From Candidatus Hydrothermarchaeum profundi (GTDB lineage Archaea; Hydrothermarchaeota; Hydrothermarchaeia; Hydrothermarchaeales; Hydrothermarchaeaceae): 64,000 bases of DNA. Where the stretch lies: positions 1,352,989 through 1,416,988 of the forward strand of contig MTMF02000009.1 of the NCBI GenBank assembly GCA_002011125.2, in the 5' to 3' direction. Positions 21,789 to 51,551 of the stretch are shown here, in pieces (positions within the stretch are counted from its first letter, which is position 1; each line of letters opens with the position of its first letter). The position numbers and the translations under genes are program-made. Under the pieces are notes generated by a model, which had not been told where the DNA came from, did no database searches, and saw only the letters and a list, made by a program, of their open reading frames with translations.

Positions 21789-22358
21789 TTACATCACCAA
21801 GAGAATATACTGGAGGACGATACCGACTCCTACAAGGCAAGAAGCTACAATAAAATGGTCATAAAAGGACTTCTCTATCACCAGCCTTTTTTCCTTTATA
21901 AAAAAATAAACAGAATAGCCGAGGTGAAAGGCAGTACTAGCAGAAAACATCATAGCAGATACGAATACACCTAGAACCACGATTACCTTAATGTTAACTA
22001 AGAAGGGGGTAAACTCTAATATCTCGGCAAATGAGGAACCAGAAGCAATACCGATAACAAAAAGAAGGGTCACGGAGGGTATGGTAAGCAGGACCCCTGA
22101 AGCTACGATCGATACCGCAGGAACAATGTTAGATCTAAGAACATCCAAGAATTCTATCTCGGAGTTAACTCCATAGGCCCTACCGTACTCGTATCCCAGA
22201 GATTTCATAGCATAGACAGTCTCCTGATGAATTGGGAATATTGGTTCAAAGCCAAAAGCTGGGCCACGGATAACATCCAGCAACCTGAGAGTGTACCCTA
22301 TAAAGAAACCTGCAAAAAACACTATAGCCGAGATCACCAAAAACTTCCTGTTTTCCAT
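21789..22358 (-). CDS. Multi-TM membrane protein, weakly SpoIIM/DUF95-like
   Basis: About five hydrophobic segments; abuts the downstream gene with no gap. Confidence 0.6.
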   Translation of the reverse strand: MENRKFLVISAIVFFAGFFIGYTLRLLDVIRGPAFGFEPIFPIHQETVYAMKSLGYEYGRAYGVNSEIEFLDVLRSNIVPAVSIVASGVLLTIPSVTLLFVIGIASGSSFAEILEFTPFLVNIKVIVVLGVFVSAMMFSASTAFHLGYSVYFFIKEKRLVIEKSFYDHFIVASCLVGVGIVLQYILLVM

Positions 22359-22653
22359 TTTTTCACTTCATTAGGTTATAGAAAAGAGGGATTTAAGCTT
22401 TTCCTCATTTGACCCATGTATTACATAACACAATTTCCGTATAGGATATCCAACTCATAAGGATAATTAAGGAATATCTGTTGAGAACATGGTACAAGGA
22501 AGATAAAAAGAAGTAGACAGTATTATAATATATAAAAAAGCCCTTCGAAGCAACGTTATGAAACGCTTTTTATTAGCTTCGCCCTACGTAGGCTAATAAT
22601 AACTATAATTCATAGATTTAAAAGTTCCTTCTCAATTTTTAAATATTAAAAGT

Positions 22654-22738
22654 CGCCGGGGGGAGGATTTGAACCCCCGTGCTCCATAGGAGCAGTGGAT
22701 CTCGAGTCCACCGCCTTACCAGACTAGACTACCCCGGC
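22654..22738 (-). tRNA. tRNA-Ser(CGA)
   Basis: Reverse complement GCCGGGG...GTGGA-CT-CGA-GA-TCCAC, long variable arm GCTCC-TAT-GGAGC, GGTTCAAATCC, discriminator G. Confidence 0.96.
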
Positions 22739-22769
22739 TTTAGGTTTTTATAAAGGATTAACTCTAAAA

Positions 22770-23042
22770 CTAGTCTTTTTTTATTTTTCTTTCAAAAAAA
22801 TCCCCGATTATAGTTCCTACTATAAATGCTAATGTCAGATAAATAACACCTATAATAGTTCCAATTAAAGTTGCTCCGAACTTCAGGAAACCGCCAGTTA
22901 TTAAATTTAAGAAAGCAAAGAAGATACCCAAGCCTAAACCTATTTTAAATCCTTTCTTAAGGAGTTCGCCTTTTTTTTCTTTTCCAGGATTGATATATCC
23001 ATAGATAATACCTGTAACAAAAGCTAATAAGTCAAATACCAT
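22770..23042 (-). CDS. Small three-TM hypothetical membrane protein
   Basis: GIIYGY.NPGKE.K..LLKKG..IG pattern of a small archaeal membrane family. Confidence 0.75.
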   Translation of the reverse strand: MVFDLLAFVTGIIYGYINPGKEKKGELLKKGFKIGLGLGIFFAFLNLITGGFLKFGATLIGTIIGVIYLTLAFIVGTIIGDFFERKIKKD

Positions 23043-23125
23043 GGTTAACTTTATTACGAAATTTTATTATTTATTTTTATTGGGGGTAAGTATTTAAAAA
23101 ATAAAAACTTTTTGGAAAATTCGAT

Positions 23126-23278
23126 ATGCAAGTAAACAAAAATCCGACAATAAAAGAGGTAAATAAAAAAGCTGTTTGTAAATGTGCCTATTGCGGCCAA
23201 GTTATCGAGATTTGTACTAGGGACAACCCTTGTCCTATTTGCGGCAGTTCTTTATTCACAGTTGTCTATAAATCCTAA
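23126..23278 (+). CDS. Small zinc-ribbon protein (50 aa)
   Basis: Manual translation: MQVNKNPTIKEVNKKAVCKCAYCGQVIEICTRDNPCPICGSSLFTVVYKS, with CxxCG...CPxCGS; TATTTAAA upstream. Confidence 0.6.
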   Translation: MQVNKNPTIKEVNKKAVCKCAYCGQVIEICTRDNPCPICGSSLFTVVYKS

Positions 23279-23492
23279 ATCTTTAAAAAAGCAAACATTT
23301 TTGTAAATTGAATATAATAAATAATATATTTAGAAAAGTATATTATAAAACATATAAATAATTACAATATCTTTTTAAAATTTAAAACATTATTGTAAAA
23401 AAGAGAATTCTGAGGTAGTTAGATAATTAGAGGATATAAATTATTCTACAGCTCTAAAAGTCCGCTTAGAATTGTTCTCATGCGGTCAAATT

Positions 23493-24167
23493 TCAAAAAT
23501 TTTTTAACAATTGTCCTGAAGAAGATAACTTCTCCATAATTTTTACTGTTCTCCAGACTTTTGAATGTGATATTCCTAGTTTTTTAGCTATTTCTCTATA
23601 GCTCATACCTTCCTTTCTAAGATTGATTATATCATGAACTTCACGTTTGGGATATATTTTTTTATGACCATTTTCTGTTCTCGTTTCAAATAGATCAGGG
23701 ACACGGCCCATCCAAAAGCCTTCTCTTTTTAATTTCTGCATTCCAAAGCTAGTTTTTCTTGCTAAATCTTTTCTAAAGTATGTAGCAAACCCTGCCTGCA
23801 TTGTGAACATTAGTTCCCCCTCTGGAGTGGTTATATCAATATCTAAATTGCTGAATCTTAAAAAAACACCATGCTCTGAAAGCTTTTCCACAATAGTTAA
23901 CGCATCCCTAGTATTTCTCGATAATCTATCATTGTGATAGCATAAAACAACTTTAAATAGTCTTTTTTCAGCATCTTCGAGTAATTGAGCTAGGGCAGGT
24001 CTCCCTTCAATAGATTTCCCGCTAACTCCATCGTCGATGTAGATCTTGGTTACCTCAAGCCCCTCTTTTTTTGCCCAATCTATTAAATACTCTTTTTGGG
24101 CTTCGATAGAAGCACCGTAGCTAGCTTGTTCTTCGGTTGAAACTCTTACGTATAACGCAGCTTTCAT
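23493..24167 (-). CDS. Small serine recombinase (resolvase/invertase type) with C-terminal HTH
   Basis: YVRVSTEEQ catalytic Ser, DDGVSGK, RPAL, DRLSRN, TTPEGELM; C-terminal GMSYREIAKKLGISHSKV HTH. Confidence 0.92.
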   Translation of the reverse strand: MKAALYVRVSTEEQASYGASIEAQKEYLIDWAKKEGLEVTKIYIDDGVSGKSIEGRPALAQLLEDAEKRLFKVVLCYHNDRLSRNTRDALTIVEKLSEHGVFLRFSNLDIDITTPEGELMFTMQAGFATYFRKDLARKTSFGMQKLKREGFWMGRVPDLFETRTENGHKKIYPKREVHDIINLRKEGMSYREIAKKLGISHSKVWRTVKIMEKLSSSGQLLKNF

Positions 24168-24199
24168 AACTGATTTTAGTAAATCGGTGCTTATATTAG

Positions 24200-24228
24200 T
24201 GTTTCGGAAGGGACCCCTTTCGAAACAG
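24200..24228. repeat. Inverted repeat upstream of the serine recombinase
   Basis: TGTTTCGGAAGGG-ACC-CCCTTTCGAAACA; 13-bp arms with one mismatch. Confidence 0.75.
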
Positions 24229-24258
24229 AATTTTTACAGATAACATAATAAGCAACGT

Positions 24259-24774
24259 TTACTTTGGAGTACCAACCAGCATTTCTATTTCTCTAATAAG
24301 AGAGGATACCTCTTCCTTTAATTCTCTGCCCTCTTTGTTCCTTGGTTTTAGCTTATTATTGAGAGATTTAAATCTACCTAAAACTCTTGCCTTGTTATAT
24401 CTGTCTTTTTTGGAGATATTTTTGGATTGCAATTCCTTTTTCATAGATAATAGGGATTCTCTATATCTAATGAGTTTCTCAATAGTGGGGGTGACTCTAG
24501 TGATTGTTTTATCGGTTCTCCCGGAAAGAATTTCGTTAAAACTCTTTATATTTAAAGCTAACATTTCACCTTTCGATGAAAGTCTGATATATTTGGTTCT
24601 GCCTTTTTTTATTGATTCGAGTATGCCTAAGTTCTCCATTTCTTTAATAAGATTAAAAGTATGGGCATATGTACTCTTTATTTCATTGGCTATTTCTGAT
24701 ACATACTTTCTCTTTTTTCCTGCAAGGGAAAGTAAAATCTCTTTACTTACTCTTTGAAAAAATATATCTTCCAT
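24259..24774 (-). CDS. Winged-HTH (MarR-like) regulator with helical C-terminal extension
   Basis: YVSEIANEIKSTYAHTFNLIKEMENLGIL...KGRTKYIRLSSKG. Confidence 0.8.
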   Translation of the reverse strand: MEDIFFQRVSKEILLSLAGKKRKYVSEIANEIKSTYAHTFNLIKEMENLGILESIKKGRTKYIRLSSKGEMLALNIKSFNEILSGRTDKTITRVTPTIEKLIRYRESLLSMKKELQSKNISKKDRYNKARVLGRFKSLNNKLKPRNKEGRELKEEVSSLIREIEMLVGTPK

Positions 24775-25046
24775 AATATATTTAATAGTATATAAGTATA
24801 TTTAAACTTTTCCTTTTTTTTTCAAAAAAGTTTGCATAATTAAAAAATAATTGAAAAAAACTCTAAGGTAATATTTTAGATACAGAGGTATTATTTGTTC
24901 TATTGTTTTTATTGGATGCCTCTGATCTGAAGAAGCTAAAGAGAAGGAATTCGTAGCTCAATCAATATTATGAGTCCCAACTAGAGGAACTAAGATTAAG
25001 ATAGTACGCAACTTTTAATAGTTACTAGATAAAGAAAATAACTACT

Positions 25047-25445
25047 ATGAAGAAAGTAAAAGATGTTATGACTCCCTATGTTAGGACCATCGGTCCAGAA
25101 GCGACAATGGATGAAGCTGCAAAGTTAATGAAAAAATTTAGAATAGGCTCTTTAGTTGTAGTTGAAAATGACAAACCAGTAGGCATAATAACTGAGCGTG
25201 ACCTAGCATATAAGATAGTCGCTGAAAGGAAACAGAATGCCAAAGTAAAAGAAATTATGTCAAGGGATCTTAAAACAATAGAGAAAGAGAAGACCCTTGT
25301 TGAGGCTGCTAAACTTATGGCTGCTCATGTGATCCGAAGGTTGCCGGTAATGGATAAAGGGAAGCTTGTGGGTATAATTACTCTGGAAGATATAATGAAG
25401 GCAGAAAAGGTAGGTGGAGAGGCAGGGGCTTATTCATTTACCTAA
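25047..25445 (+). CDS. Stand-alone CBS-pair protein
   Basis: VKDVMT, IGSLVVV...VGIITERD, IRRLPV...VGIITLED. Confidence 0.92.
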   Translation: MKKVKDVMTPYVRTIGPEATMDEAAKLMKKFRIGSLVVVENDKPVGIITERDLAYKIVAERKQNAKVKEIMSRDLKTIEKEKTLVEAAKLMAAHVIRRLPVMDKGKLVGIITLEDIMKAEKVGGEAGAYSFT

Positions 25446-27821
25446 AAATATTCTTGGCGCATCTCCGTATTCTACCTCTTTTATACTATGCATTTCTTTT
25501 AGATCTTTTTCAAATGGTTTAAGTACTTCCGGTAAGACAACTTTCTCTACCGGAGATTTTAACGAAAGGCCCGCTTCTTTCTTCTTTTTCCATATTAGGC
25601 TATTTATCTCAAGGATATCTGATGTTTTTATTTCTAATTCATAATCTTCCTCGACCTTTGGAAACTCTGTAAAGTGGATATCTTCGCCTCGGAGTTCCAT
25701 ATATAGTTTGTAAGTTATAAAAGGCACTATAGGAGCCAGTAATTTTAATATAGCCTCTAAGCACTTGTTCAAAGTGTATATAGCCGCATTTTGTTCTTCT
25801 TGGCTAAATTTACCCTCGTGGTTATATGCTCTATTCTTTACCATTTCTAAATAGTGGGATGCAAAAGTCTCCCACAGGAAATGTTTTATCCTTATGGCAG
25901 GATTATGAAAGTCATATTTCTCATATCTCTCTCTCGTGAACTTTATCAGCTTATTAATCTCTGAAAGTATCCATTTATCTGATTCCATCAGCTTATATTT
26001 CCCCTCTACTTTTGGGAATAGAGATATAAAGCGAGCTAAGTTCCAGAGCTTTGTAAGCGTTTTTTTCGTTCCAGCTATTCTTTGAAAAGAACATCTAAAG
26101 TCTGTTCTATCTAAGTTACCCTCTACGGCGGCCCATAATCTAAATGGCTCTGCCCCAAACTCGTCGAGTACGTCCTTAGGATCAATCACGTTCCCCACAG
26201 ATTTACTCATCTTTCGTCCTTTTTCGTCAACAATATGGTAGTTTATCCAGACATCCTTGAAAATCACCTTCCCTGTGAGCAAATAATCTTTTAAAACGGT
26301 ATAATATAGCCAGGTCCTTATGATTTCTTTCCCTTGTGGACGGAGGGAGCACGGAGAGTTTTTTTCAAAAAACTCTGGGTCCCTTGAATATTTCAGTATA
26401 TATAGGGGAGTTATAGATGAATCGAACCAAGTATCAAATACTCTCTCATCGCCTTTAAATTCTGAAGACCCGCATCTTGGGCAGTTTTTAACCGGAGCTA
26501 TGTCTTTCCAAGGCTTATAATAACGGCCTTTTTTAGGAACTATTATCTCTCCACAGTTTTTGCAGTGCCACACAGGTACTTCAGTTGCATAATATCTCCT
26601 GCGCGATATAGGCCAATCTATCTTTATAGAGTCGATCCAATCTAGTAAGATCTGTCTACTTTGGGGCGCATAAAAATTCATCTGATAAGCGAGTTTCCGC
26701 ATTTCATCCTTGTAATCCAATTGCTTTAGATAGAATTCTTCCATTTCAATAAATTCTATATCATCTCCCGATCTCTCGCAAGTAGGGGTTCTATGCACAA
26801 TTTCATGTTGTCTTACAAGTAAACCTCTCTTCTTTAGCTCTTCAATCATTTTTTTTCTAGCTTCTTTTACAGGTAGCCCTGCAAGAAATCCAGCGTTTTC
26901 ATTCATTTTACCATCTTGGTTTATTGCTATCGTAGGCTCAAGTCCCATTTCTATAAAGAATCTAATATCTGAGGTATCCCCAGCAGAACACATCATAACC
27001 AGGCCTGTGCCTTTCTCCATGTCAGCCATCGGATGAGCTTTAACTGGGACTTCCTTCTCAAATATTGGGGTAATGGCAGTTTTACCCTCCAATCGTTGGT
27101 ATCTTTCATCCTTGGGATTAAAAATCACCATGCCACAGGTACACACAAGCTCTGGCCTAGTTGTACTTATTATTATTTCCTCCCCAGTTTCTTTTATCTT
27201 AAAGATAATATCATTAAAAGTGGTAGGCTCTTCCTTGTAAACGATCTCAGCATCCGCTATAGTTGTTCTACATCCAGGACAATAATTTGTAATTCTTTTG
27301 TCTATGTATATTAGGCCTTTGTTCCAGAGATCTATGAAGGTCTCTTGAGTAAGGGTTCTATAATCTTCAGAGTCAGTTTCATATACTTCACCTAGTCCCG
27401 TACCAATCTCGAAAGAGTTAAAACTTATACCTAATCTCAAAAAAGATTCTATAGTTTTAGTGCCAGCATCTTCTAGTACCCCCTTACAAAGTTCAATGAA
27501 TTTTTCTCTAGGCGTTTCAGACAGCTTAATACCATATTTCTTTTCAGTTGCCATTTCAATAGGTAAACCATTCTTGTCAAGTCCAAGGGGGAATAAGACA
27601 TTATAACCTATCATCCTCCGGAATCTAGCGAACATATCCATAATCACGTAGGTTGTAGCTTGGCCGATATGTACTGGGGTGTTAACATAAGGAGGGGGGG
27701 TATCTATAGAATAAACAGGTTTGTCGCTTTTCTTATTAAATGCGTAGAGTTTTTCTTCTTTCCACTTAGTGTATATCTCCTCTTCAAACTCTTTTTTCCA
27801 TCTTTTTTCTTTAATTGGCAT
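25434..27821 (-). CDS. valS: Valyl-tRNA synthetase
   Basis: SIDTPPPY, HIGQ, TTRPE, GTGLVM, DWPISRRR, DTWFDSS, PQGKEIIRTW, KMSKS. Confidence 0.93.
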   Translation of the reverse strand: MPIKEKRWKKEFEEEIYTKWKEEKLYAFNKKSDKPVYSIDTPPPYVNTPVHIGQATTYVIMDMFARFRRMIGYNVLFPLGLDKNGLPIEMATEKKYGIKLSETPREKFIELCKGVLEDAGTKTIESFLRLGISFNSFEIGTGLGEVYETDSEDYRTLTQETFIDLWNKGLIYIDKRITNYCPGCRTTIADAEIVYKEEPTTFNDIIFKIKETGEEIIISTTRPELVCTCGMVIFNPKDERYQRLEGKTAITPIFEKEVPVKAHPMADMEKGTGLVMMCSAGDTSDIRFFIEMGLEPTIAINQDGKMNENAGFLAGLPVKEARKKMIEELKKRGLLVRQHEIVHRTPTCERSGDDIEFIEMEEFYLKQLDYKDEMRKLAYQMNFYAPQSRQILLDWIDSIKIDWPISRRRYYATEVPVWHCKNCGEIIVPKKGRYYKPWKDIAPVKNCPRCGSSEFKGDERVFDTWFDSSITPLYILKYSRDPEFFEKNSPCSLRPQGKEIIRTWLYYTVLKDYLLTGKVIFKDVWINYHIVDEKGRKMSKSVGNVIDPKDVLDEFGAEPFRLWAAVEGNLDRTDFRCSFQRIAGTKKTLTKLWNLARFISLFPKVEGKYKLMESDKWILSEINKLIKFTRERYEKYDFHNPAIRIKHFLWETFASHYLEMVKNRAYNHEGKFSQEEQNAAIYTLNKCLEAILKLLAPIVPFITYKLYMELRGEDIHFTEFPKVEEDYELEIKTSDILEINSLIWKKKKEAGLSLKSPVEKVVLPEVLKPFEKDLKEMHSIKEVEYGDAPRIFLGK

Positions 27822-30598: not shown

Positions 30599-31531
30599 CT
30601 ATTGATGTAAGAGCTGAGATAAAAGCTCACTAATGTCGGCTTCTGCTACACATACGTACTTGTCTGCTGCACCGTAGTAGACTAGTAGTCGGCCGTCAAT
30701 AACAACGGCGGCTTCTGGGAAAACTACATTTTGAACATCGCCATGCTTCTCGTATTCCTCCCTAGGCTCTAACACAGGTTTTTTAGTTCTACTAATAACG
30801 ATGCTAGGGTTTCTAGAGTCTAGGAGGGCTATACCTGCACGGTATACCTTCTTATTATCAACACCGTGATAAATGAGGAGCCACCCTTCTTCAGTTTTTA
30901 TTGGAGGTGAACCCGCGCCAACTTTGAATTCTTCCCATTTTTCTTCTGGTTTTAATAAAAGTTTATGGTTTTTCCAATCTCGGAGATTCTTGGAATAAGC
31001 TATCCAAATACTCGGTTTAGCTGTGCCATACTCTTTCCCAATCCAATTGTGAGGACGATGAAGCATAACGTATGAGCCATCTATTTTTTCGGGAAATAAT
31101 ACTACATCTCTGTCATCAGCTCCTGGCGGGGTTATTACTCCTATCTTGTGGAATTTTTTGAAATCCCTAGTTTTAGCAAGAGCTGTTCGTGGTGGACCTC
31201 CTCCTTGCCTTGCGGGTTTTTTAAGGGCAACGTAAGTCATATATACTTCGCCCTCTATCTTGGTTATTCTAGGGTCCTCACATCCCCACTTGTCATATTC
31301 TCTATCAGGTTGAAAAACTGGGTTAGTGGATACTCTTCTAAAAACGTAGCCATCTTCACTTATAGCATATCCTATCCTAGATATGTAGTAGTCATATTCC
31401 CCAATAGCACGGTAAAGTAGATGAATTCTTCCTTCCGTGTATAACGCCGCAGGATTAAATACTGCTTTTGATTCCCACCAGTTCTTGGAGATCGGCTTTA
31501 GTACTGGATTAAATTTGTAACGCACAAGCAT
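30599..31531 (-). CDS. GH130 family beta-mannoside phosphorylase-like protein
   Basis: VFNPAA, LLYRA, GCEDPRI, VLFPEKI, LHRP, KVGAG.PPIKT..GWLLIYHG, GDVQNVVFP, YYGAAD. Confidence 0.9.
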   Translation of the reverse strand: MLVRYKFNPVLKPISKNWWESKAVFNPAALYTEGRIHLLYRAIGEYDYYISRIGYAISEDGYVFRRVSTNPVFQPDREYDKWGCEDPRITKIEGEVYMTYVALKKPARQGGGPPRTALAKTRDFKKFHKIGVITPPGADDRDVVLFPEKIDGSYVMLHRPHNWIGKEYGTAKPSIWIAYSKNLRDWKNHKLLLKPEEKWEEFKVGAGSPPIKTEEGWLLIYHGVDNKKVYRAGIALLDSRNPSIVISRTKKPVLEPREEYEKHGDVQNVVFPEAAVVIDGRLLVYYGAADKYVCVAEADISELLSQLLHQ

Positions 31532-31590
31532 AGCTTACTCTACCTTGCAATTTCTATTATTTTAGAATCACATAAAAAAGAATTTTAAAA

Positions 31591-32616
31591 CTATAGTCTG
31601 TTTTTATCGAGGATGCTCATAATCTCGCTAATATCGATTTCTCCTATGCCTATGACTGAGTCTGTGGCGCCATACGATATTAAAATCGTGTCATCTATCT
31701 TAGCAGCGCCGCAAGGGAAAACAACGTGAGGTCTGTCTCCGTATATTTCATATATTTCCTTTGGGGCCATTATATAGTTGGGTGTGATGGCGGCCACTTT
31801 AGAATCATGGGTTAACACAGCAAAAACACGGTAAGATTGTGTATCCCTATCTACACCGTGCAATAATATAAGATTTTCATTGTCTATTTTTATAGGCGGG
31901 GTCGCCCATCCTACCTTTTGCTCAAAATCGGCAGGTTCAAAGGCCGTTAGGGTATCTTGGACTCTGATTTCTTCTAGTTGATCTGTATTAATATTATTGC
32001 TTACTTTGCTTATCGTTAGATAAAACTTCCCATCTGTGAGGTGTAGTCTATGAAAAAGAAGGAGCTCATTATCTTCTTTTACTAAAAACGCATTTTTGTC
32101 ACTTATTACATATTCCTTTAATTTCTCAGGCATTCTAAAAACTAAAATCTTTTTCCACTTGCCGGATTTATAAGCAGCCGTTACTGGAAGCGTCCTTTCG
32201 TGTTTAATAATAGGATTGAAATAATTTACTGTTCTACCACAGTAGGTCATTAGGAGTTCCCCCTCTAGTTCATAAACGCGTGGATCTTCCACTCCCCAAT
32301 AGTCGTACTTACAGTCAGGGTACACCTTTATTTCTGCCTCGTAGAATTTATTCGAGTTAGAATAAATATCGCTTAAAGGGAGAGTAATTTGAGCTACTGC
32401 ACTTGAATAAGTGTAATATCCTAGAATAATCCGAGCGTATAATCTAACTTGATCACCATTAATAGCTAAAGAGGGATTAAAGATAGTAGCAGGTTTCGCT
32501 ACTGGATGACCTACTAATCTTATTCTATCTGCTGTAATTACTTTAAGTCTCCTAACAATATCTATTGTTTTAAACTCTCTTTTCTCCTTTGGTTCTTTAT
32601 GTATTACCTCAAACAT
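31591..32616 (-). CDS. Second, divergent GH130 family protein
   Basis: IFNPS, GVEDPRV, LFHR, KVGWATPP, LLHG, GDRPHVVFPCG, SYGATD. Probable start is ATG 32616; the ORF track extends to 32664. Confidence 0.85.
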   Translation of the reverse strand: MFEVIHKEPKEKREFKTIDIVRRLKVITADRIRLVGHPVAKPATIFNPSLAINGDQVRLYARIILGYYTYSSAVAQITLPLSDIYSNSNKFYEAEIKVYPDCKYDYWGVEDPRVYELEGELLMTYCGRTVNYFNPIIKHERTLPVTAAYKSGKWKKILVFRMPEKLKEYVISDKNAFLVKEDNELLLFHRLHLTDGKFYLTISKVSNNINTDQLEEIRVQDTLTAFEPADFEQKVGWATPPIKIDNENLILLHGVDRDTQSYRVFAVLTHDSKVAAITPNYIMAPKEIYEIYGDRPHVVFPCGAAKIDDTILISYGATDSVIGIGEIDISEIMSILDKNRL

Positions 32617-32766
32617 GACGTGGTAGTTTAAATGAAACCTTTTTTTAATTTTTTGCTTAATCAAATACTAGATTTATGGTTTTGGTGGTTCCTAAAATTT
32701 TTTTAAATAGTTATTGTTTTTTTCTTCTAACAGGGATTTTTGTTTTAATAGTTGGGGGTGGTAGCA

Positions 32767-33912
32767 GTGAAAATAGGCATGATGACCAGATGGAACTCAG
32801 CTTGTGGAGTTTCTGTGCACGCAGAACTAATTGGGAGAGAATGGGTGTCGAGAGGACATGAGTTGAAAATTTTCGCCCCCATAGAGTATAGCGAGACCGT
32901 TAATATTGAACTTCAGGATGAGGATTATGTCACGAGATGTTATAGATTAGATGGATACTATAGAAAGAAGAAAGCGTATATGTATCGTGCACAGGAGCCG
33001 CCTTATTTTGATCCAGAGCCTTTTCTACAAGATGATTACGATGTATTTGTAATACAAAATCTAGAGATAATGCCAATGAAAGAACTCTTAAAAATTTATC
33101 CAGAAATAAGAAAAGGGACATCGACTGTATTTGTAGTTCATGAAGGAAGACTGCCAGATGACCCTCTGTTCTATAAGTTTGATTTTGATGCGGTAGTATG
33201 CTTTGATGAGCGATATAAGAACTTCCTTAAAAAGATTTACCCTGAGGAAAAAATCCATATTATACCCTATCCCTGTTATCCTCCTATTGAGGGTGACAAA
33301 GCTATTGCGAGAGAAAAGCTCAAGTTACCTGAGGACTTGGCTGTCATATTTAACTATGGTATAGGTATTTTTAGACATCTTCATTTACTACCCTCCATTA
33401 AGAGAGTGGCTAAGAAGTACCCATTACGATTCTTGGTTTTAACGGATCACCCTGATTGGTATGAACTCTTTGATACTGTAAAGCAAAAATATGACTTTGT
33501 AGATCTACGAAGAGGCGCACCGGAGATTCAGGAGCTATATGAGTATTTATCTGCCTCAGATGCGCTCCTTTTCCACAAGGACCATAGCCCAAATGTAGTA
33601 GTTTCAAGTAGCGCTTATTTATGTATGGGTTCTCTTTGTCCGATTATTGCATACGATTCAAACTATTTTGAAACACTGGATAAAGAGGTGATAAAATATC
33701 GGTCGCTTATTGAGTTAGAAGAAAAACTTGAGTCTATTATCAAAGGCGATGAAATAGTTGAAGAGACAAAACAGGCAGCAAAGCGATATGTAGAGTTGAA
33801 TTCAAGTGAAAAGATAGCAGAGAAGTTCTTGCAGCTATTTGAGAATTTAATATTGAGTAAACAAGTGATACTTAGTACTCCAACACTGCAAGAAAAACAT
33901 GGGGTGGCGTAA
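32767..33912 (+). CDS. GT-B fold glycosyltransferase (GT4-like), candidate mannosyltransferase
   Basis: MKIGMMTRWN..CGVSVHAELI...GHEL N-terminus, AREKLKLP, YLSASDALL, CPII, S.EKIAEKF. GTG start after GGGGTGG. Confidence 0.8.
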   Translation: MKIGMMTRWNSACGVSVHAELIGREWVSRGHELKIFAPIEYSETVNIELQDEDYVTRCYRLDGYYRKKKAYMYRAQEPPYFDPEPFLQDDYDVFVIQNLEIMPMKELLKIYPEIRKGTSTVFVVHEGRLPDDPLFYKFDFDAVVCFDERYKNFLKKIYPEEKIHIIPYPCYPPIEGDKAIAREKLKLPEDLAVIFNYGIGIFRHLHLLPSIKRVAKKYPLRFLVLTDHPDWYELFDTVKQKYDFVDLRRGAPEIQELYEYLSASDALLFHKDHSPNVVVSSSAYLCMGSLCPIIAYDSNYFETLDKEVIKYRSLIELEEKLESIIKGDEIVEETKQAAKRYVELNSSEKIAEKFLQLFENLILSKQVILSTPTLQEKHGVA

Positions 33913-33932
33913 AGCCCAAGTATCTAGTGTTA

Positions 33933-34943
33933 TTACCTTTCGTAGAAGTCTTTAACTCGCACAGTATCCTGTGGATGGGGGGTAGAGTACTCAAATATCC
34001 TAAGGTTCTTTTTTGCAATGATGCTGTGAACTTTTCCAGGCTCTATATGGATTATGCTACCTGCCGTAGCACTGAGTTTTTTATCCTCATTGGGAAACTC
34101 TATGTATCCCTCTCCTTCCAATACATGCATGCTTTCATCCTTATACCGGTGATAATGTAGACTGGTACGGAAACCTTTCTTTAAATATAGCTCCTTAACT
34201 AGATATTTCTCGTTATTAACGATGATTTTTTCATAGCCCCAAGGCTTATCCATTCTATTCTCATATTCTCTCCTTACAGCCTCTAAGTCCTTCATACCAT
34301 CTACACTACGCCAGAAAACTCCATCCTCAAAGTAGCTTCCGACTTTACGTTCCTCAACTAACTCTGGAAATACGGTCTTCTCTATCTCTTTATGATCATA
34401 TTCCTTTGAGAAGTATGGGAATGCTTCTGTTTTTATATAATATATCCCAGCGTTAATGAAAAGGTCCAGCGGAGGCTTTTCCCTGAAAGAGGTGATAATT
34501 CTATCGTTAAATTCTATTATTCCGTAGGGGCTCTGCATTCGTGTAATAGCGATAGTCATTATTCTATCATTCTTTCTAGCTACATCTACCAAGTTCTTGA
34601 TGTTTATATCAGTAACAACATCCCCGTTCCTCACTACAACATCATTATCAATATCCTGTAAGGCGTTATTAAGAGCCCAAAGAGTACCCATAGGCTTTTC
34701 TTCTGTAAGGTATTTTATTTTAACTCCAAAACGCTCTTTTCCTACCCTCTCTCTTATCTTCTCTTCAAGATAGCTTACGAGCAAGAATACCTCTCCTATC
34801 CCAGCGTACTTGAAATCAAGGATCTGTTTGTCTAGAATAGTATAGCCTTCTTTAATTTCTAGCAACGGTTTAGGGGTTTCGTTAGTCAAAGGCAAAAGGC
34901 GCTTACCATACCCCCCTGCGAAGATGATTCCAGTAACCTCCAT
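33933..34943 (-). CDS. Sugar-1-phosphate nucleotidyltransferase fused to a C-terminal cupin (mannose-1-P guanylyltransferase/PMI-like)
   Basis: AGGYGKRLLPLT..TPKPL, NGD, EKP, INAGIY; cupin KPWGYE...RTSLHYH...E resembling type II phosphomannose isomerase. Confidence 0.82.
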   Translation of the reverse strand: MEVTGIIFAGGYGKRLLPLTNETPKPLLEIKEGYTILDKQILDFKYAGIGEVFLLVSYLEEKIRERVGKERFGVKIKYLTEEKPMGTLWALNNALQDIDNDVVVRNGDVVTDINIKNLVDVARKNDRIMTIAITRMQSPYGIIEFNDRIITSFREKPPLDLFINAGIYYIKTEAFPYFSKEYDHKEIEKTVFPELVEERKVGSYFEDGVFWRSVDGMKDLEAVRREYENRMDKPWGYEKIIVNNEKYLVKELYLKKGFRTSLHYHRYKDESMHVLEGEGYIEFPNEDKKLSATAGSIIHIEPGKVHSIIAKKNLRIFEYSTPHPQDTVRVKDFYER

Positions 34944-35081: not shown

Positions 35082-37043
35082 TTAATTTACTACTAATAAG
35101 TGATACTTCCCCAACCTCCCAGTCAGCCTGCTATTTTCAAGTTTAACTTTGGAATCATATACCTTTTCACCATTTTCATCAAATTCTATAACCTTATCTC
35201 CCCCAAGCAAGTTAATGTCTATCTCTACCTCATATGGTGCAAAGAAGGCGGATCGTGTTTCTCCATTTGTAAAGTAGCCATATGAAGGTTTATTATAAAC
35301 AGCAGGTGATCCCCTGGTTTCGGCCATAATATTCGCTAGAAAGGTGGAAGCATCCAAATGTAAATACCCGCCATTCACAAAATAGACATTCCCATGCCTT
35401 AATATTAAAGCAGTTTTATCATCAAATTTTTTATCTCCATCTTTTGCGGTAAAACCTGATAAAAGAACATCTACGCTTTCGTCAAGCTCCTCTGGATTGA
35501 TGTAGTTAAGGTAGTGACCTACATTAAACGTTCCAGCATCATCTTTGTTCCAGAACTCAAAGCTATAGCCTCTATATTTAATTTTGTATTCTCCCAAGGG
35601 GAAAACTGCGAGCACAGATCTTGGGATAGGATCAAAAGAAGCAGCGCTGGAAATTGGAGTATATTTTCTTGAAATACCTAAGGCTAAGGTAACAATATTC
35701 CAATGTGGCATATCCGGGATTCCTCCAGCAACCTGATAAAAAACTGGCACATTGCTTTTTGAGAGAGCAGCTAACTGTAAGGGTAAATCCTGCATTTCAT
35801 CGAATATTTCGCCTGCCGAGAACACATAATATAATGAGGCATTTATTACGGGTTGTGCTGTAACTACAATATCATAACCAGATGCCAAAAGCGAATTTGT
35901 TACTGCACTCATAGAGGATAAAAAAGCTTGATTATAAAAATCTATAATATCCTCTCCTTTTTTAGGCTCGTCTATAATTAGATTAGCAACCGGTTTTAGT
36001 GGATCTGATTTTTTCCTACCAAACTCTTCGAGGAGGGGCAGTAAACGTTCTTTAAAGTTATAGTTTTCTACATATTCGACCTCTTCTCCATAAATAGGTC
36101 CTTCACCGCCTTCAGCCACTACAAAATAATATGTTCTTGGACCATATTGTACACTCCGGAAGAGGGCTATATTCTGATGAGTTCTCGGTCCTAGACCCCA
36201 GCCGCCTGCTGTTAGGGTTTGTGCCTCTATACCACATCCTTTTGCCGTAGCATACATTACGTTTAGGTTTCCAAGTTCGCCGTAATATGTTCCAAGTTTC
36301 CAGAGTTTTTGGAGATATGCTCGGTCCTTAGGGTCTTTTTCTGCATTTCTCGGGTAATAGGCGTAGTCTTCAGAAATAAAGACATCTGCTCTACATTTAA
36401 GATCCTCAAAAAAGTGCATATATCCTACACCATAAGTTTTAGAAGCCCTCGCAATAGAGTCAATATATTCTTCTTCAAAAGCTTCTTCGCTAATATAAAT
36501 GTCCACGTCTTCTTTTTTTGCAAGATTTGCGATATCTCTTATTAGATTTTCCACAAGTTTTGGTATAAGTTTCTCTTTCTTTATTTCCTCAGAATAAGGC
36601 ATCATGTCCCCTATTATATGTGCTATGCCCTCAATCATAAGCACGACGGTCATGTTATGCATTTTAGCCTCGCTTAGAATATCTGAGAGAAGATTTGGAT
36701 ACTCCGGGTCAAGTTTAAAGCCAGCTTCTCTGAGTGCGGGAGAGTCAAATATCATGTAACCCTCGAGGTCAAAGGGCGAAAAAGAAATTATATTTATTCC
36801 TTTTGCCGTTTGTTCATCAAACCATCCTTCTGCATCTCCGATGATGTATGGGTCGAGGTCTTCTAAGCCGAAGTTATATTCTGCGCCAAGTGAAATTAAG
36901 GGTCTTTCCGCGGGATAATTTGCATTAGTTTCATCTATTTCCTCGGCAGGGGGTTGGCTAATTGGACTTTCTCCAACACATCCGAGCATTAAAATTAAAA
37001 AAATACATGATAATACCAATAAGGAATGTCTCTTATATTTCAT
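35082..37043 (-). CDS. Large hypothetical lipoprotein (possible glycoside-hydrolase-like TIM barrel)
   Basis: Lipobox LMLG-C, P/E linker, acidic alpha/beta body; family not recognised. Confidence 0.65.
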   Translation of the reverse strand: MKYKRHSLLVLSCIFLILMLGCVGESPISQPPAEEIDETNANYPAERPLISLGAEYNFGLEDLDPYIIGDAEGWFDEQTAKGINIISFSPFDLEGYMIFDSPALREAGFKLDPEYPNLLSDILSEAKMHNMTVVLMIEGIAHIIGDMMPYSEEIKKEKLIPKLVENLIRDIANLAKKEDVDIYISEEAFEEEYIDSIARASKTYGVGYMHFFEDLKCRADVFISEDYAYYPRNAEKDPKDRAYLQKLWKLGTYYGELGNLNVMYATAKGCGIEAQTLTAGGWGLGPRTHQNIALFRSVQYGPRTYYFVVAEGGEGPIYGEEVEYVENYNFKERLLPLLEEFGRKKSDPLKPVANLIIDEPKKGEDIIDFYNQAFLSSMSAVTNSLLASGYDIVVTAQPVINASLYYVFSAGEIFDEMQDLPLQLAALSKSNVPVFYQVAGGIPDMPHWNIVTLALGISRKYTPISSAASFDPIPRSVLAVFPLGEYKIKYRGYSFEFWNKDDAGTFNVGHYLNYINPEELDESVDVLLSGFTAKDGDKKFDDKTALILRHGNVYFVNGGYLHLDASTFLANIMAETRGSPAVYNKPSYGYFTNGETRSAFFAPYEVEIDINLLGGDKVIEFDENGEKVYDSKVKLENSRLTGRLGKYHLLVVN

Positions 37044-47776: not shown

Positions 47777-48937
47777 ATGAAGGCTCTAGTAGTGATCTGT
47801 GATGGTATGGGGGATAGGCCAATAGAAGAACTTGGTAAAAAAACGCCGCTAGAGGTAGCGAGGACTCCTAATATGGATGAACTTGCTGCGCGGGGGATAA
47901 ATGGGACTATGCATCCAATCGGTCCTGGGATAAGGGCAGGCTCTGATACATCTCATTTAGCTATTTTGGGTTACGATCCCTTTAAAGTGTATACAGGTAG
48001 AGGCCCCTTTGAAGCAGCCGGTTTAGGCATTGAACTAAAACCCGGAGACATAGCATTCCGATGTAATTTTGCCACAATAGATGAAAACATGGTAGTAACC
48101 GATAGGAGGGCAGGAAGAATAAAAGATACGACGGAGCTTGCTAAGATAATAAATACTCTTACGCTACCTGGCGTTGAAATTATTTTTAAATCTCTAAGTT
48201 ACAGGGGAGCACTAGTGTTACGTGGTAGAGGCTTAAGTTATAAGGTTTCTGACTCTGATCCGCATTACCCCAATAAAAAAGTTGAGAAAGTGAAGCCTCT
48301 CGATAATTCAAAAGAGGCTAAAAGAACAGCGCAACTAGTTAATGAATTCACCGAAAAGGTACAAGAAGCTCTTAGCGGAAAGAAGGCTAATATGCTTCTA
48401 CTCAGAGGATGTGGGGCTGCTGTAAAATTGCAGTCCATAACGGAGAAATACGGGATTTCCGGCTCATGCATGGCTACTACTGCTATAATAAAGGGAATAG
48501 CAAAGTCGGTGGGAATGAATATAATCAATGCGGATTTAAATTATCTTAAGCGAAGTTCAAGGGCACTAAAAGAACTTGAAAAGGTAGACTTCCTCTTAAT
48601 GAATATTAAAGAAGCTGATGAGGCGGGGCACGACCATAACCCTCGAAAAAAAGTAGAGATAATAGAAAAAATAGATGAGGCGATAGGAGTTTTTTTGGAT
48701 TTCTCGCAGGAAAATTATGTTGCTGTACTAGCGGACCATACGACACCATGTAGCTTTGGAGATCATACAGGTGATCCCGTGCCTATTACAATTTGTGGCC
48801 CTGAAGTAAGGACTGACGAAGTAGATAAGTTTAGCGAAAGAGCAAATTCTAAGGGAGGCTTAGGATGGATAGTAGGAACAAATTTTATGCCTATCCTATT
48901 GAATTTTATGAATAAATCTGAAAAGTTTGGTGCATGA
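47777..48937 (+). CDS. apgM: 2,3-BPG-independent phosphoglycerate mutase
   Basis: DGMGDRP, TPLE.A.TPNMD, GSDTSHL, GRGPFEA, DEAGHD, ADHTTP, HTGDPVP. Start at ATG 47777. Confidence 0.94.
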   Translation: MKALVVICDGMGDRPIEELGKKTPLEVARTPNMDELAARGINGTMHPIGPGIRAGSDTSHLAILGYDPFKVYTGRGPFEAAGLGIELKPGDIAFRCNFATIDENMVVTDRRAGRIKDTTELAKIINTLTLPGVEIIFKSLSYRGALVLRGRGLSYKVSDSDPHYPNKKVEKVKPLDNSKEAKRTAQLVNEFTEKVQEALSGKKANMLLLRGCGAAVKLQSITEKYGISGSCMATTAIIKGIAKSVGMNIINADLNYLKRSSRALKELEKVDFLLMNIKEADEAGHDHNPRKKVEIIEKIDEAIGVFLDFSQENYVAVLADHTTPCSFGDHTGDPVPITICGPEVRTDEVDKFSERANSKGGLGWIVGTNFMPILLNFMNKSEKFGA

Positions 48938-48938
48938 T

Positions 48939-50300
48939 ATGGAGTATATATTCAGAGCCTATGATGTGAGGGGCATCTTTAATAAGGAAATAACGCCTGA
49001 AATAGCAGCGAAGATTGGAATTGCGTTTGGAACGTATCTAAAGGGAGAGGGTAAGGTATTAGTGGGCCGTGACCCTAGGACAAGCAGCCTTATAATGGAA
49101 AATGCTTTTATATCAGGTCTATCTGCGACAGGTTGCGATGTCTACTCGACAGGGTTGGTACCGATACCGACAGCAAACTTTAAGATTTGGCAAGGGGGCT
49201 ATGATGCCGGAGCATATATAACTGCTTCTCATAATCCTCCTGAGTATAATGGCGTTAGATTTAGGCATCCTGATGGCACGGGCTATACATTTCAAAACGA
49301 AGAAATTAAGAATATCTTTCTAAAAGAGGAGTTCAAGCTATCAGATTGGAAGAATGTAGGTAGAATAATATACATAAATCCTGAAAAAACGCTAAGAGAA
49401 TACTCAGACTATATTTTAAGCAAATTTAACCCAGTATATGAGAAATTCAAGGTGGTCATTGACCCGGGTAATGGAGCAGCATCTCTGATTGCGCCATATA
49501 TCTTCAGAGAATTTGGAGCAAAAGTTTCAACAATAAATTGTTATCCGGATGGAACCTTTCCTGGAAGACCCTCTGAGCCGAATGAAAAAAATCTCGGAGA
49601 CTTGATGAAAGCAGTAGTCGCTACAGGAGCAGATTTTGGGGCAGGTTATGATGGCGACGCAGATAGGGTTGTATTCGTAGATGATAAGGGTAGGGTTGTG
49701 CAAAACGAGAAGATAGGAATAATAATCTCAAAAAGGATACTTGAGAAAAAGAAGGGTATTATTATAGCAAACATGGAATGCTCTATGATAGTTGAAAGCG
49801 AGATTAAAAAGGCAGGTGGTACTGTAAAAAGAGTCAGAGTAGGAGATGTATTCGTGGCGGAAGCAATTAAAAAATATAATGCGCTTTTTGCAATGGAAAC
49901 AAGTGCACACTACTTTTTTCCAGAATTTTATACCTTCGATGACCCTATTGTTGTAAGCTTAAAACTGGGCGAGATACTTTCTGAATGGGGATTAAAACTC
50001 TCTGAGATGGTCGATGAGATCCCTAGTTATCCTAAAGTAATGGAAAATATACCATGCCCGGATGAAAAAAAATTCAAAGTGATAGATGAACTTATAAATA
50101 CTTATAAAAACTCAGGCTTGCCTGTAGATCTTACTGATGGTGTTAAGGTAAGCTATAGCGATGGATGGTTTTTATTGAGGCCGTCAAATACAACTCCTTT
50201 AATTAGGGCAACTGTAGAGGCGAAGTCCAACGATAGGCTTCAAGAGCTTTTAAAAATGGTTAAAAAGGAAATTAAAACTGCTTTGAAGAAAATTAGTTAG
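48939..50300 (+). CDS. Phosphohexomutase (PMM/PGM/GlmM family)
   Basis: IFRAYDVRG, ITASHNPPEYNG, DGDADR, RPSNT. Confidence 0.93.
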   Translation: MEYIFRAYDVRGIFNKEITPEIAAKIGIAFGTYLKGEGKVLVGRDPRTSSLIMENAFISGLSATGCDVYSTGLVPIPTANFKIWQGGYDAGAYITASHNPPEYNGVRFRHPDGTGYTFQNEEIKNIFLKEEFKLSDWKNVGRIIYINPEKTLREYSDYILSKFNPVYEKFKVVIDPGNGAASLIAPYIFREFGAKVSTINCYPDGTFPGRPSEPNEKNLGDLMKAVVATGADFGAGYDGDADRVVFVDDKGRVVQNEKIGIIISKRILEKKKGIIIANMECSMIVESEIKKAGGTVKRVRVGDVFVAEAIKKYNALFAMETSAHYFFPEFYTFDDPIVVSLKLGEILSEWGLKLSEMVDEIPSYPKVMENIPCPDEKKFKVIDELINTYKNSGLPVDLTDGVKVSYSDGWFLLRPSNTTPLIRATVEAKSNDRLQELLKMVKKEIKTALKKIS

Positions 50301-50309
50301 GTATGCAAA

Positions 50310-51551
50310 GTGAAAGCCGTAATACTCGCAGCAGGTAAAGGCACGAGACTTGAGCCTATAACAGATAATACTCCTAAAGCGATGCTTCCTATAGCAGGAA
50401 AGCCTATCCTAGAGTATATTCTAGAATCGATGAGGGAGGCAGGGATAGGAGAAATCACAATAGTAGTAGGGTATAAAGCGGATAGTATCCGAGACTACTT
50501 TAAAGATGGAGCTAGATTAGGTCTCTCTATCGATTATGTTTTGCAAGAAACTCAGCTAGGAACTGCAGATGCGATACGAAGATGTAAATTTGATGAGGAT
50601 TTTCTAGTTTTAGCAGGGGATGCCATAGTATCAGTGGATGTAATTAAAACTGTTCTTGAAAATCACGATTCAGCGGTTACGCTCGGTGTCAAAAAAGTAG
50701 AGAACCCTGAAGGATATGGGGTCGTAATATTAGAAAATGGAAAAGTTAAAAAAATTGTAGAAAAACCTAAAGAATATATCTCCAATTTAGCGTGTATTGG
50801 TGTAAACTGTTTTTCGCCTGAGATCTTTAATGCGATTGAAAAAACCCCAAAGTCTGAGAGAGGCGAATATGAGATTACAGATTCTATTAAAATTTTAATG
50901 GAAGAAGGTAAAAAAGTTAAAGCCGTTGAAGTTCGTGGAGAATGGCTTGATATTGGTAACCCGTGGAGCTATCTAGATGCAAATAAAAAGATTTTGGGGA
51001 AAAAAGATTTAAAGATCCTAGGTATTGTTGAAGAAAATGTGGTTTTAAAAGGAACCGTGGTTCTCGGGAAGGGCTCTATAATTAAGTCAGGGTCTTATTT
51101 GGAGGGCCCTGTATATATTGGGGAAAACTCTATTATAGGGCCTAATGCTTACCTCAGGAACTATTCTTCTATTGGTTCCAACTGCTATGTAGGGAATAGT
51201 GTTGAAATAAAAAATTCTATAATTATGGACGGCACAAAGGTCCCTCATTTATCATATGTCGGTGATTCAATTATAGGAAAAAACTGCAATTTAGGCGCAG
51301 GGACTTTGGTTGGGAACCTACGTTTAGATAGTAAAAATGTGATGATGCGAATAAAAGGAAAGCTAGTCGATACTGGGAGAAGAAAGTTTGGATGCGTTAT
51401 AGGTGATAATACAAAATTGGGATTAAATGTAATGATCAATTCCGGTAAAAAGATAGGTAACAATTGTATGATTGGGCCAGGTATTATAATATATAGCGAT
51501 ATTCCTAATGGTTCTTTTATTTTAAGTAAACAAGTGATAGAAAAAAGATAA
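50310..51551 (+). CDS. glmU: Bifunctional sugar-1-P nucleotidyltransferase/acetyltransferase (archaeal GlmU)
   Basis: LAAGKGTRL, RGEYEITD, left-handed beta-helix with EIKNSII, PHLSYVGDS, RRKFG. Confidence 0.88.
   Translation: MKAVILAAGKGTRLEPITDNTPKAMLPIAGKPILEYILESMREAGIGEITIVVGYKADSIRDYFKDGARLGLSIDYVLQETQLGTADAIRRCKFDEDFLVLAGDAIVSVDVIKTVLENHDSAVTLGVKKVENPEGYGVVILENGKVKKIVEKPKEYISNLACIGVNCFSPEIFNAIEKTPKSERGEYEITDSIKILMEEGKKVKAVEVRGEWLDIGNPWSYLDANKKILGKKDLKILGIVEENVVLKGTVVLGKGSIIKSGSYLEGPVYIGENSIIGPNAYLRNYSSIGSNCYVGNSVEIKNSIIMDGTKVPHLSYVGDSIIGKNCNLGAGTLVGNLRLDSKNVMMRIKGKLVDTGRRKFGCVIGDNTKLGLNVMINSGKKIGNNCMIGPGIIIYSDIPNGSFILSKQVIEKR

Follow-up and report, generated by a model that had tools for sequence, protein, structure and literature searches.

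Synthase and phosphorylase for one intracellular glycoside can be encoded together: glycogen synthase and glycogen phosphorylase share an operon, and phosphorylases also degrade compatible solutes such as glucosylglycerate. Rodrigues et al. reportedly described in 2009 that TM0359 of Thermotoga maritima is a GDP-mannose-dependent beta-1,2-mannosyltransferase acting on di-myo-inositol phosphate (DIP), and the same paper is said to have reported homologs in Aquifex and Archaeoglobus. We analyzed a 64,000-nucleotide stretch of the genome of the archaeon Candidatus Hydrothermarchaeum profundi (contig MTMF02000009.1, positions 1,352,989 to 1,416,988; referred to as the window), in which the gene for a GT-B glycosyltransferase (GT) lies beside two genes of glycoside hydrolase family 130 (GH130-A and GH130-B) and a gene for a nucleotidyltransferase–cupin fusion. 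As in the glycogen and glucosylglycerate systems, a Leloir synthase and phosphorylases for the same intracellular glycoside would be encoded together, whereas the sugar, the linkage and the enzyme families are all different. The GT and the two GH130s may synthesize and phosphorolytically recycle a mannosylated inositol-phosphate solute; no synthase–phosphorylase pair for such a compound was on record in the literature that we searched.

In the sections of PMC3124967 that treat it, the synthase of mannosyl-DIP (MDIP) is said to attach between one and three mannoses to DIP and to have no relationship to known glycosyltransferases, and Thermotogales and Aquificales are the groups named. The window GT resembles TM0359 in that it falls outside the known sequence families, has a 49%-identical homolog named as MDIP synthase, and belongs to a genome that can make DIP. 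It differs in that its family is tied to GH130, whereas no catabolic partner has been described for TM0359. This family also extends far beyond Thermotogales and Aquificales, occurring in more than 10 named lineages. Nothing joining MDIP or TM0359 with GH130 was found in the searched literature, a collection of main texts with few subscription journals.

Phosphorolysis of beta-1,2-mannosides is documented in two other settings. The cluster Teth514_1785-1796 of Thermoanaerobacter sp. X-514 encodes two cytoplasmic GH130 beta-1,2-mannoside phosphorylases, a mannose-1-phosphate guanylyltransferase and a glycosyltransferase annotated as GT4; the passages of the paper that deal with it read it as a salvage route from imported mannan to GDP-mannose and remark that Thermoanaerobacter has no known beta-1,2-oligomannan source (Chiku et al. 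2014, PMC4264767). The window shares with this cluster the two GH130s, the match of GH130-A to its enzymes, and a GH-A type glycosidase nearby. Unlike the window, the Thermoanaerobacter cluster includes an ABC transporter and has its genes in a single orientation; the window for its part carries a very divergent second GH130 and belongs to a genome with DIP synthesis genes. The other setting is the mannogen of Leishmania, which is turned over by GT108 mannosyltransferase-phosphorylases (Sernee et al. 2019, as cited in parts of PMC12814180 and PMC4264767). There, as proposed here, GDP-mannose goes into an intracellular beta-1,2-mannoside that phosphorolysis returns to mannose-1-phosphate, but one GH130-like protein does both and the product is free mannan, whereas the window has a separate GT-B enzyme and GH130 phosphorylases, with an inositol phosphate as the likely acceptor. 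A 2025 paper describes GH130 enzymes with dual activity and, in the portion that discusses it, does not settle what role they have physiologically (PMC12814180).

The GT is linked to GH130 across bacteria and archaea

A scan of one genome per species recovered 232 relatives of the GT, of which the best 80 gave 75 loci, a sample that leaves out distant members such as any from Thermotoga or Thermoanaerobacter. The loci come from Deltaproteobacteria/Thermodesulfobacteriota, Dehalococcoidia and other Chloroflexi, Atribacterota, Aerophobetes, Ignavibacteria, Omnitrophota, WOR-3 and TA06 on the bacterial side, from Methanophagales, Methanosarcinales, Bathyarchaeia, Nitrososphaeria and Thermoplasmata on the archaeal side, and from others. 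A GH130 gene stood no more than 300 bp from a GT paralog in 55 of the 75 loci, and somewhere in the locus in 57. Because genomes that hold GH130 usually carry only one to three copies of it, adjacency recurring at this rate is not a matter of chance. Many loci have two to four GT paralogs and two GH130 genes, all on one strand.

Whole-genome counts point the same way. We sampled 251 genomes from the phylum that holds the Methanophagales metagenome-assembled genome (MAG) of locus L064, and GH130 was present in every GT-bearing genome (31/31) versus 39 of the 220 without the GT. The corresponding counts for 37 other genomes of the window's own phylum were 7/7 and 2/30.

We then grouped the GTs and the GH130s into subfamilies by average-linkage clustering on pairwise identity, which yields unrooted clusters and not clades. 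Particular clusters went together: GT cluster 7 adjoined GH130 cluster 2 (the type of about 400 aa) in nine out of nine adjacent pairs, and GT cluster 8, the window's type, adjoined GH130 cluster 4 (the GH130-A type) in 15 pairs and cluster 3 in four. The sole adjacent pair of GT cluster 1 was with GH130 cluster 1 (the GH130-B type). Judged by gene order and co-occurrence, the conserved unit is the GT together with GH130. An earlier reading of the window, made from its sequence alone (the sequence-only reading), had put four genes into one cycle and asked for their co-occurrence in other genomes; the GT–GH130 part of that expectation stood, whereas the nucleotidyltransferase–cupin fusion occurred in only one of seven GT-bearing relatives.

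One of the more elaborate loci is that of Methanophagales (L064:3341-16960), where two GT–GH130 sets are accompanied by a GH94 phosphorylase, GT4 genes, a thermosome subunit and an MscS channel.

Both GH130 proteins retain the residues of phosphorylases

Both proteins passed the PF04041 cut-off (26 bits) over their full length, and they are only ∼31% identical to each other. Along its entire length, GH130-A matched two solved enzymes of Thermoanaerobacter, the 1,2-beta-oligomannan phosphorylase (PDB 9fj8, E 3.5e-69) and the beta-1,2-mannobiose phosphorylase (PDB 7fip, E 1.6e-64). GH130-B matched solved enzymes mainly in its C-terminal third, with 62 bits, or 89 bits with a family profile. Neither passed the equivalog cut-off of 450 bits of the NCBIfam beta-1,2-mannobiose phosphorylase model NF052550 (GH130-A, 297.5; GH130-B, 81.3). 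The relatives of GH130-B at 50%–73% identity bear names from Aquifex aeolicus, A. pyrophilus, Archaeoglobus veneficus, other Archaeoglobales, Altiarchaeales, Hydrothermarchaeota and others.

The EDPR, HR, KVG and HG motifs that the sequence-only reading had pointed out in both proteins are present and align with residues of the solved enzymes. GH130-A retains E85-D86, H158-R159, K203 and H222 in an alignment to Uhgb_MS, with K203 at the position of R242; this alignment follows the published numbering, E136-D137, K184 and R242 falling at their published places. In a MAFFT alignment of 81 GH130 sequences, GH130-B retains E126-D127, K190, H205-R206, K250 and H269. We take the Arg of the HR motif and the His of the HG motif to be, besides the residue at R242, the other two of the three phosphate-holding basic residues of GH130, which is consistent with the joint loss of both in another GH130 cluster. 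As set out in the relevant part of Cuskin et al. (PMC4599007), phosphate is held by three conserved basic residues that GH130 hydrolases have lost; R242 of Uhgb_MS is identified as one such residue in the part of PMC12814180 on that enzyme. Since the catalytic Asp and the phosphate-binding basic residues are retained, both GH130s of the window look like phosphorylases by this residue criterion. GH130 cluster 3 of other loci, in contrast, lacks the phosphate-holding residues.

One GH130 cluster, made up of the second GH130 of the deltaproteobacterial operons (L009:6188-7120 and 20 similar open reading frames [ORFs]), retains the Glu-Asp pair and has replaced the HR Arg with Met in 18 of the 21 sequences, the HG His with Asn in 17, and the KVG Lys with Gly in 18. 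By these residues it does not count as a phosphorylase.

The pair that corresponds to E136/K184 of Uhgb_MS differs between the two window proteins, being E85 and R141 in GH130-A, with Arg at the place of Lys, and E126 and K190 in GH130-B (MAFFT, 81 GH130s). In the section of PMC12814180 on linkage, this Glu/Lys pair is what sets beta-1,2 specificity. The loop that follows the HR motif in GH130-A is 11 residues longer than in Teth514_1788 and longer than in the solved enzymes. We speculate that Arg141 and the long loop of GH130-A would be in keeping with a plus-one site for an inositol phosphate, as would the numerous invariant basic residues in the GH130-B family.

The GT belongs to a distinct family with a GT-B fold

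The GT scored 20.7 bits against the Pfam GT4 model PF13439, below its cut-off of 28.5; an NCBIfam scan gave nothing useful, and a sequence comparison to solved chains gave no match to the GT or to its 81-sequence family profile. An AlphaFold2 model built from the 81-sequence alignment was confident (pLDDT 92.9, pTM 0.91) and showed a GT-B fold. Its nearest Foldseek matches were retaining GT4 enzymes at TM 0.6–0.7 and 11%–17% identity, including MshA, GlgM, BshA, methylmannose-polysaccharide mannosyltransferase, PimA, TreT and sucrose-phosphate synthase. GT4 enzymes carry an EX7E motif at the helix after the fourth C-domain strand; in the GT this helix, read from the sequence and the model, has Ser at its start and no Glu inside. 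By sequence the family lies outside GT4, and fold alone does not decide between retention and inversion. Grouping with ordinary retaining alpha-glycosyltransferases was the outcome that the sequence-only reading had named as speaking against it: the GT comes close to these in fold, with GT4 nearest, and not in sequence.

A homolog search returned 551 proteins at E ≤ 0.001, many of them 50%–58% identical and spread across bacteria and archaea. One homolog (P0113, 49% identity) carries the JGI name GDP-mannose:di-myo-inositol-1,3'-phosphate beta-1,2-mannosyltransferase, which is the activity of TM0359. There were no Thermotoga names among the 120 matches listed in a search started from P0113. 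A protein atlas query for a named GT from Thermotoga or Aquifex returned none; the nearest clusters were called "glycosyltransferase family 1" and had no Pfam family in common. We regard the GT as a candidate GDP-mannose beta-mannosyltransferase, with donor, acceptor and beta configuration all putative.

Genes for inositol phosphates accompany the module

The sequence-only reading had suggested a genome-wide search for DIP synthesis genes, and these were found. A MIPS gene (C9:879871-880986) lies directly upstream of a gene for a fused IPCT/DIPPS (C9:880937-882289), whose product scored 318 bits over positions 2–416 of the 419-position Thermococcales model NF041135 and contains the Pfam domains NTP_transf_3 and CDP-OH_P_transf. 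DIP can therefore be made in this genome. Separate from this pair, a second MIPS gene (C9:1477675-1479708) lies beside a small CDP-alcohol phosphatidyltransferase, and these two presumably serve inositol lipids.

Genes of the same pathway recur next to the module elsewhere. Of the 75 loci, 15 have MIPS or IPCT/DIPPS genes flanking it, and so does one relative. MIPS is found within 13 of the 75, 11 of which share the deltaproteobacterial layout, with L025 and L082 arranged differently. An IPCT/DIPPS-like fusion stands directly beside the GT in an Ignavibacteria MAG (L043), in a Guaymas deltaproteobacterium (L082) and in a relative from the window's order (G011, L113); the fusions of L043 and L113 scored 194–195 bits along the whole model. 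A GH130 of ∼393 aa abuts the fused IPCT/DIPPS in two genomes from another archaeal phylum (G190, C67:4488-6805; G214, C103:26103-28426).

Within the 251-genome sample, the fused IPCT/DIPPS was found in 21 of 31 GT-bearing genomes versus 24 of 220 without the GT. It was also found in 18 of the 20 genomes with a GH130-B-type gene, for which our working definition was a PF04041 score of at least 275 bits. Taken together, the inositol-phosphate gene links to the module are strong by gene order and co-occurrence.

Mannose genes accompany the module as well. In L009-type loci and in L113, the gene after the GT encodes a PMI-type cupin; in L053 the module is followed by a small protein with Cupin_2 only, and in L107 a class I PMI stands before the GT.

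The operon at L009:1042-12355 runs in the order MIPS, GT, a 460-aa protein with no Pfam or NCBIfam match, a dual-specificity phosphatase, GT, GH130, GH130, GT, a PMI-type cupin, a GH5/GH42-like protein and DUF6178. Its MIPS and phosphatase, found without a DIPPS, hint at a different mannosyl-inositol product.

Locus layout, neighboring genes and origin

The four genes lie where the sequence-only reading had placed them, with the divergent gap between GH130-B and the GT and the convergent arrangement of the GT and the nucleotidyltransferase–cupin gene, which are 20 bp apart (Table 1). It was also right that no sugar transporter is adjacent (no sugar transporter family was detected among the scanned ORFs of at least 90 aa between 349 and 58488) and that signal peptides are missing, in that the translations show no hydrophobic leader at the N terminus of any of the four proteins. 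The longest ORF of GH130-B is 31591-32664 on the minus strand, and its likely start, ATG at 32616, gives the 341-aa form found in the protein collection. For the GT, the longest ORF is 32752-33912 on the plus strand, and the likely start, GTG at 32767, gives a protein beginning MKIGMM, in agreement with the family consensus. The divergent gap presumably contains both promoters.

Table 1. Genes and intergenic region of the locus, in window coordinates
Feature	Position	Strand	Description	Evidence
GH130-A	30599..31531	-	310 aa; predicted cytoplasmic beta-mannoside phosphorylase, beta-1,2 type	PF04041, 225 bits
GH130-B	31591..32616	-	341 aa; divergent GH130 lineage, predicted phosphorylase	PF04041, 309.7 bits
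Divergent intergenic region GH130-B/GT	32617..32766		150 bp, AT-rich	Read from sequence
GT-B glycosyltransferase (GT)	32767..33912	+	Distinct family; candidate GDP-mannose beta-mannosyltransferase of the MDIP-synthase kind	
NTP_transferase + cupin (PMI-type) fusion	33933..34943	-		PF00483, 117.5 bits; Cupin_2, 29.4; PF01050 (MannoseP_isomer), 28.7
Lipoprotein-like protein, glycosidase-like fold	35082..37043	-	653 aa	No Pfam match

The nucleotidyltransferase–cupin fusion has the domain pair NTP_transferase and MannoseP_isomer, and its nearest solved chains are GDP-mannose pyrophosphorylases (7d72, E 3e-21). It reached no NCBIfam cut-off; the model for bifunctional GMP/PMI (TIGR01479, cut-off 373) gave 39.6 bits, and in the cupin part only. 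Read from the sequence, the cupin retains HxH...E...H, which we take to be the metal-ligand motif of cupins. A role as GDP-mannose supplier is plausible from these domains. Orthologs at 65%–73% identity occur in 12 other genomes of the phylum (16 of 37 when distant copies are counted), and a paralog of 54% identity lies elsewhere in the window's genome. The gene order around the orthologs of six relatives has nothing in common with the window, and the one GT-bearing relative that has the fusion (G011) carries it on a separate contig. We place the fusion outside the conserved unit because its phyletic pattern does not follow the GT; by its distribution it is a lineage-native gene that stands beside the module by happenstance.

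The 653-aa protein next to the fusion, which the sequence-only reading does not mention, was modeled with a pLDDT of 90.5 and resembles three-domain GH42, GH164 and alpha-L-fucosidase enzymes (TM ∼0.5, 9%–11% identity). It has 88 representative relatives among 1.84 billion proteins and occurs in seven of the 37 genomes of the phylum. On its distribution we treat it as unrelated to the module, though it keeps the salvage explanation discussed below alive.

The pieces of the locus have different closest relatives. The window GT is 32%–42% identical to the GTs of its relatives, 55%–59% to deltaproteobacterial GTs and 72%–74% to two metagenome proteins. GH130-A is closest (∼52%) to the GH130 that adjoins the orthologous GT in deltaproteobacterial loci, and GH130-B is closest (54%–62%) to copies in relatives and hyperthermophiles. 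The GH130-B type is present in six of seven GT-bearing relatives alongside a distant GT type, and the two genes are adjacent in G016. These identities suggest that the window has a GT and GH130-A pair joined with a GH130-B of the hyperthermophile kind, and we claim no direction of transfer.

The genome (2.19 Mb, 19 contigs, ∼39% G+C) has core archaeal genes around the module, among them genes for ribosomal proteins, tRNA synthetases, SepF and NIP7. A low-GC stretch at window positions 22000-26000 (0.34 versus ∼0.39), with a serine recombinase (23493-24167) and small ORFs without a family, may be a mobile-element remnant and lies ∼6 kb from the module. Further along, at 48927-51551, lie a phosphoglucomutase/phosphomannomutase gene, whose product is a possible source of mannose-1-phosphate, and after it a gene for a GlmU-like nucleotidyltransferase that has a left-handed beta-helix.

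A proposed recycling pathway and its alternatives

We infer that the GT and the two GH130s form a cytoplasmic module for one beta-mannoside, in which the product of the GT is the substrate of the GH130s, and we put the probability that this module makes and phosphorolytically recycles a mannosylated inositol-phosphate solute at roughly 0.5. The GT would take mannose from GDP-mannose and attach it to an inositol phosphate, which in this archaeon is most likely DIP, giving mannosyl-DIP and perhaps di- and tri-mannosylated forms. The two GH130 phosphorylases would strip the mannose with inorganic phosphate to yield mannose-1-phosphate, dividing the labor perhaps by chain length, as in Thermoanaerobacter, or by acceptor. 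The neighboring nucleotidyltransferase–cupin could return mannose-1-phosphate to GDP-mannose. Such phosphorolytic breakdown would keep the sugar phosphorylated with no ATP spent. A synthase and a phosphorylase side by side need not waste energy, since there are precedents within one transcription unit, provided that activity is controlled.

The interpretation given with the sequence-only reading, a cycle running from mannose-1-phosphate over GDP-mannose and a mannosylated acceptor and back, is partly supported as a whole. As an obligatory coupling it did not hold up, given that four of five Chloroflexi-type genomes with tandem GT paralogs have no GH130 anywhere in the genome, their completeness being unestablished. 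The on/off regulation that it proposed is doubtful, as many bacterial loci have GTs and GH130s head to tail on one strand in an operon-like manner.

Several further observations weigh against a mannosylated inositol phosphate as the compound in question, or against the module as such. GH130 is absent from 18 of the 75 GT loci, nine of which are cut within 300 bp of the GT on one side. Related genomes are not independent, so Fisher values on the counts from the 251 genomes overstate the association, the direction of which is still clear. The nearest solved folds of the GT are retaining GT4 enzymes, and a beta product requires an inverting enzyme. The link to MDIP synthase consists of one JGI name among the 120 matches listed; the other named matches are called "hypothetical protein" or "glycosyltransferase involved in cell wall biosynthesis". 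In GH130-A, Arg141 occupies the position that Lys184 holds in beta-1,2 enzymes, and the structural part of PMC12814180 reports a Glu paired with Arg in a beta-1,3 enzyme. The fused IPCT/DIPPS is full length in only one of five module-bearing genomes tested individually and is missing from 10 of the 31 GT-bearing genomes, so DIP is not the acceptor everywhere. Finally, the gene combination of the window may be a recent mosaic.

In the main rival, the module builds and breaks down free beta-1,2-oligomannan as an intracellular reserve, the prokaryotic analog of mannogen in Leishmania, and inositol compounds are at most primers. GH130-A is indeed closest to enzymes acting on 1,2-beta-oligomannan and beta-1,2-mannobiose, the two to four GT paralogs and two GH130s of many loci are what chain building and trimming would call for, and the genomes with a GT and without the fused IPCT/DIPPS fit a product other than mannosyl-DIP. 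The rival is also in keeping with Thermoanaerobacter, where Chiku et al. found no beta-1,2-oligomannan source even though the cluster has a GT4 gene (PMC4264767). Set against this are the MIPS or IPCT/DIPPS genes inside or beside the module in several independent arrangements, the enrichment of the GT in DIPPS-bearing genomes, and the single GT of the window, and we consider a free oligomannan unlikely. Still less probable, in our view, is a biosynthetic role in which the GH130s themselves transfer beta-mannose from mannose-1-phosphate, or weakly from GDP-mannose, onto DIP or a primer made by the GT. Phosphorolysis is reversible, and in the relevant part of PMC12814180 the beta-1,2 GH130s tested had weak glycosyltransferase activity with GDP-mannose, but the authors allow there that this side activity may be without physiological relevance. 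The head-to-tail, one-strand order of GTs and GH130s in many loci suits such a role, and so do the eight of 20 genomes with a GH130-B-type gene that show no GT at E ≤ 1e-30; cellular phosphate, on the other hand, usually favors phosphorolysis.

It is also conceivable, and we think least probable, that the GH130s salvage imported beta-mannosides, for instance fragments released by a secreted glycosidase-like protein, while the GT takes part in making an unrelated product, a glycan or a glycolipid, for example a mannosylated inositol lipid of the PimA kind. The 653-aa lipoprotein-like protein with its GH42/GH164-like three-domain fold is two genes away, but none of the seven genomes of the phylum that have it carries the GT. 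The Thermoanaerobacter cluster joins its GH130s with a GH5 and an ABC transporter (PMC4264767, in its description of the cluster) and locus L053 holds an MFS sugar transporter inside the module, whereas the scanned ORFs near the window's genes include no transporter. PimA is among the retaining GT4 enzymes nearest to the GT in fold, yet the Pfam GT4 model stayed below its cut-off and the GT matched no solved glycosyltransferase by sequence. An unrelated GT, moreover, would not adjoin GH130 in 55 of 75 loci.

The reading that we carry forward is a module that makes a mannosylated inositol phosphate and recycles it by phosphorolysis. A broader form of it, which we offer tentatively and which has somewhat worse than even prospects, is that TM0359-like GTs and GH130 make up a widespread, unrecognized system that keeps mannosylated inositol phosphates as intracellular solutes or reserves and recycles them by phosphorolysis. 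The GH130-B lineage of Aquifex, Archaeoglobus and this archaeon would then consist of phosphorylases devoted to mannosyl-DIP, a solute for which no catabolic enzyme is known so far, and the subfamily pairs would serve different chain lengths or acceptors. Such a system may reach far beyond Thermotogales and Aquificales to ANME-1/Methanophagales, Archaeoglobi-type archaea, Bathyarchaeia, Deltaproteobacteria, Atribacterota and others.

Significance

If the module works as proposed, a physiological substrate would be at hand for entire GH130 subfamilies that now lack a known one, and the beta-1,2-mannoside phosphorylases of Thermoanaerobacter, which lack a known sugar source, may find their explanation. 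The range of mannosylated inositol-phosphate solutes would widen to take in many uncultured anaerobes and archaea, and the solute metabolism of hyperthermophiles would gain an energy-saving route of breakdown.

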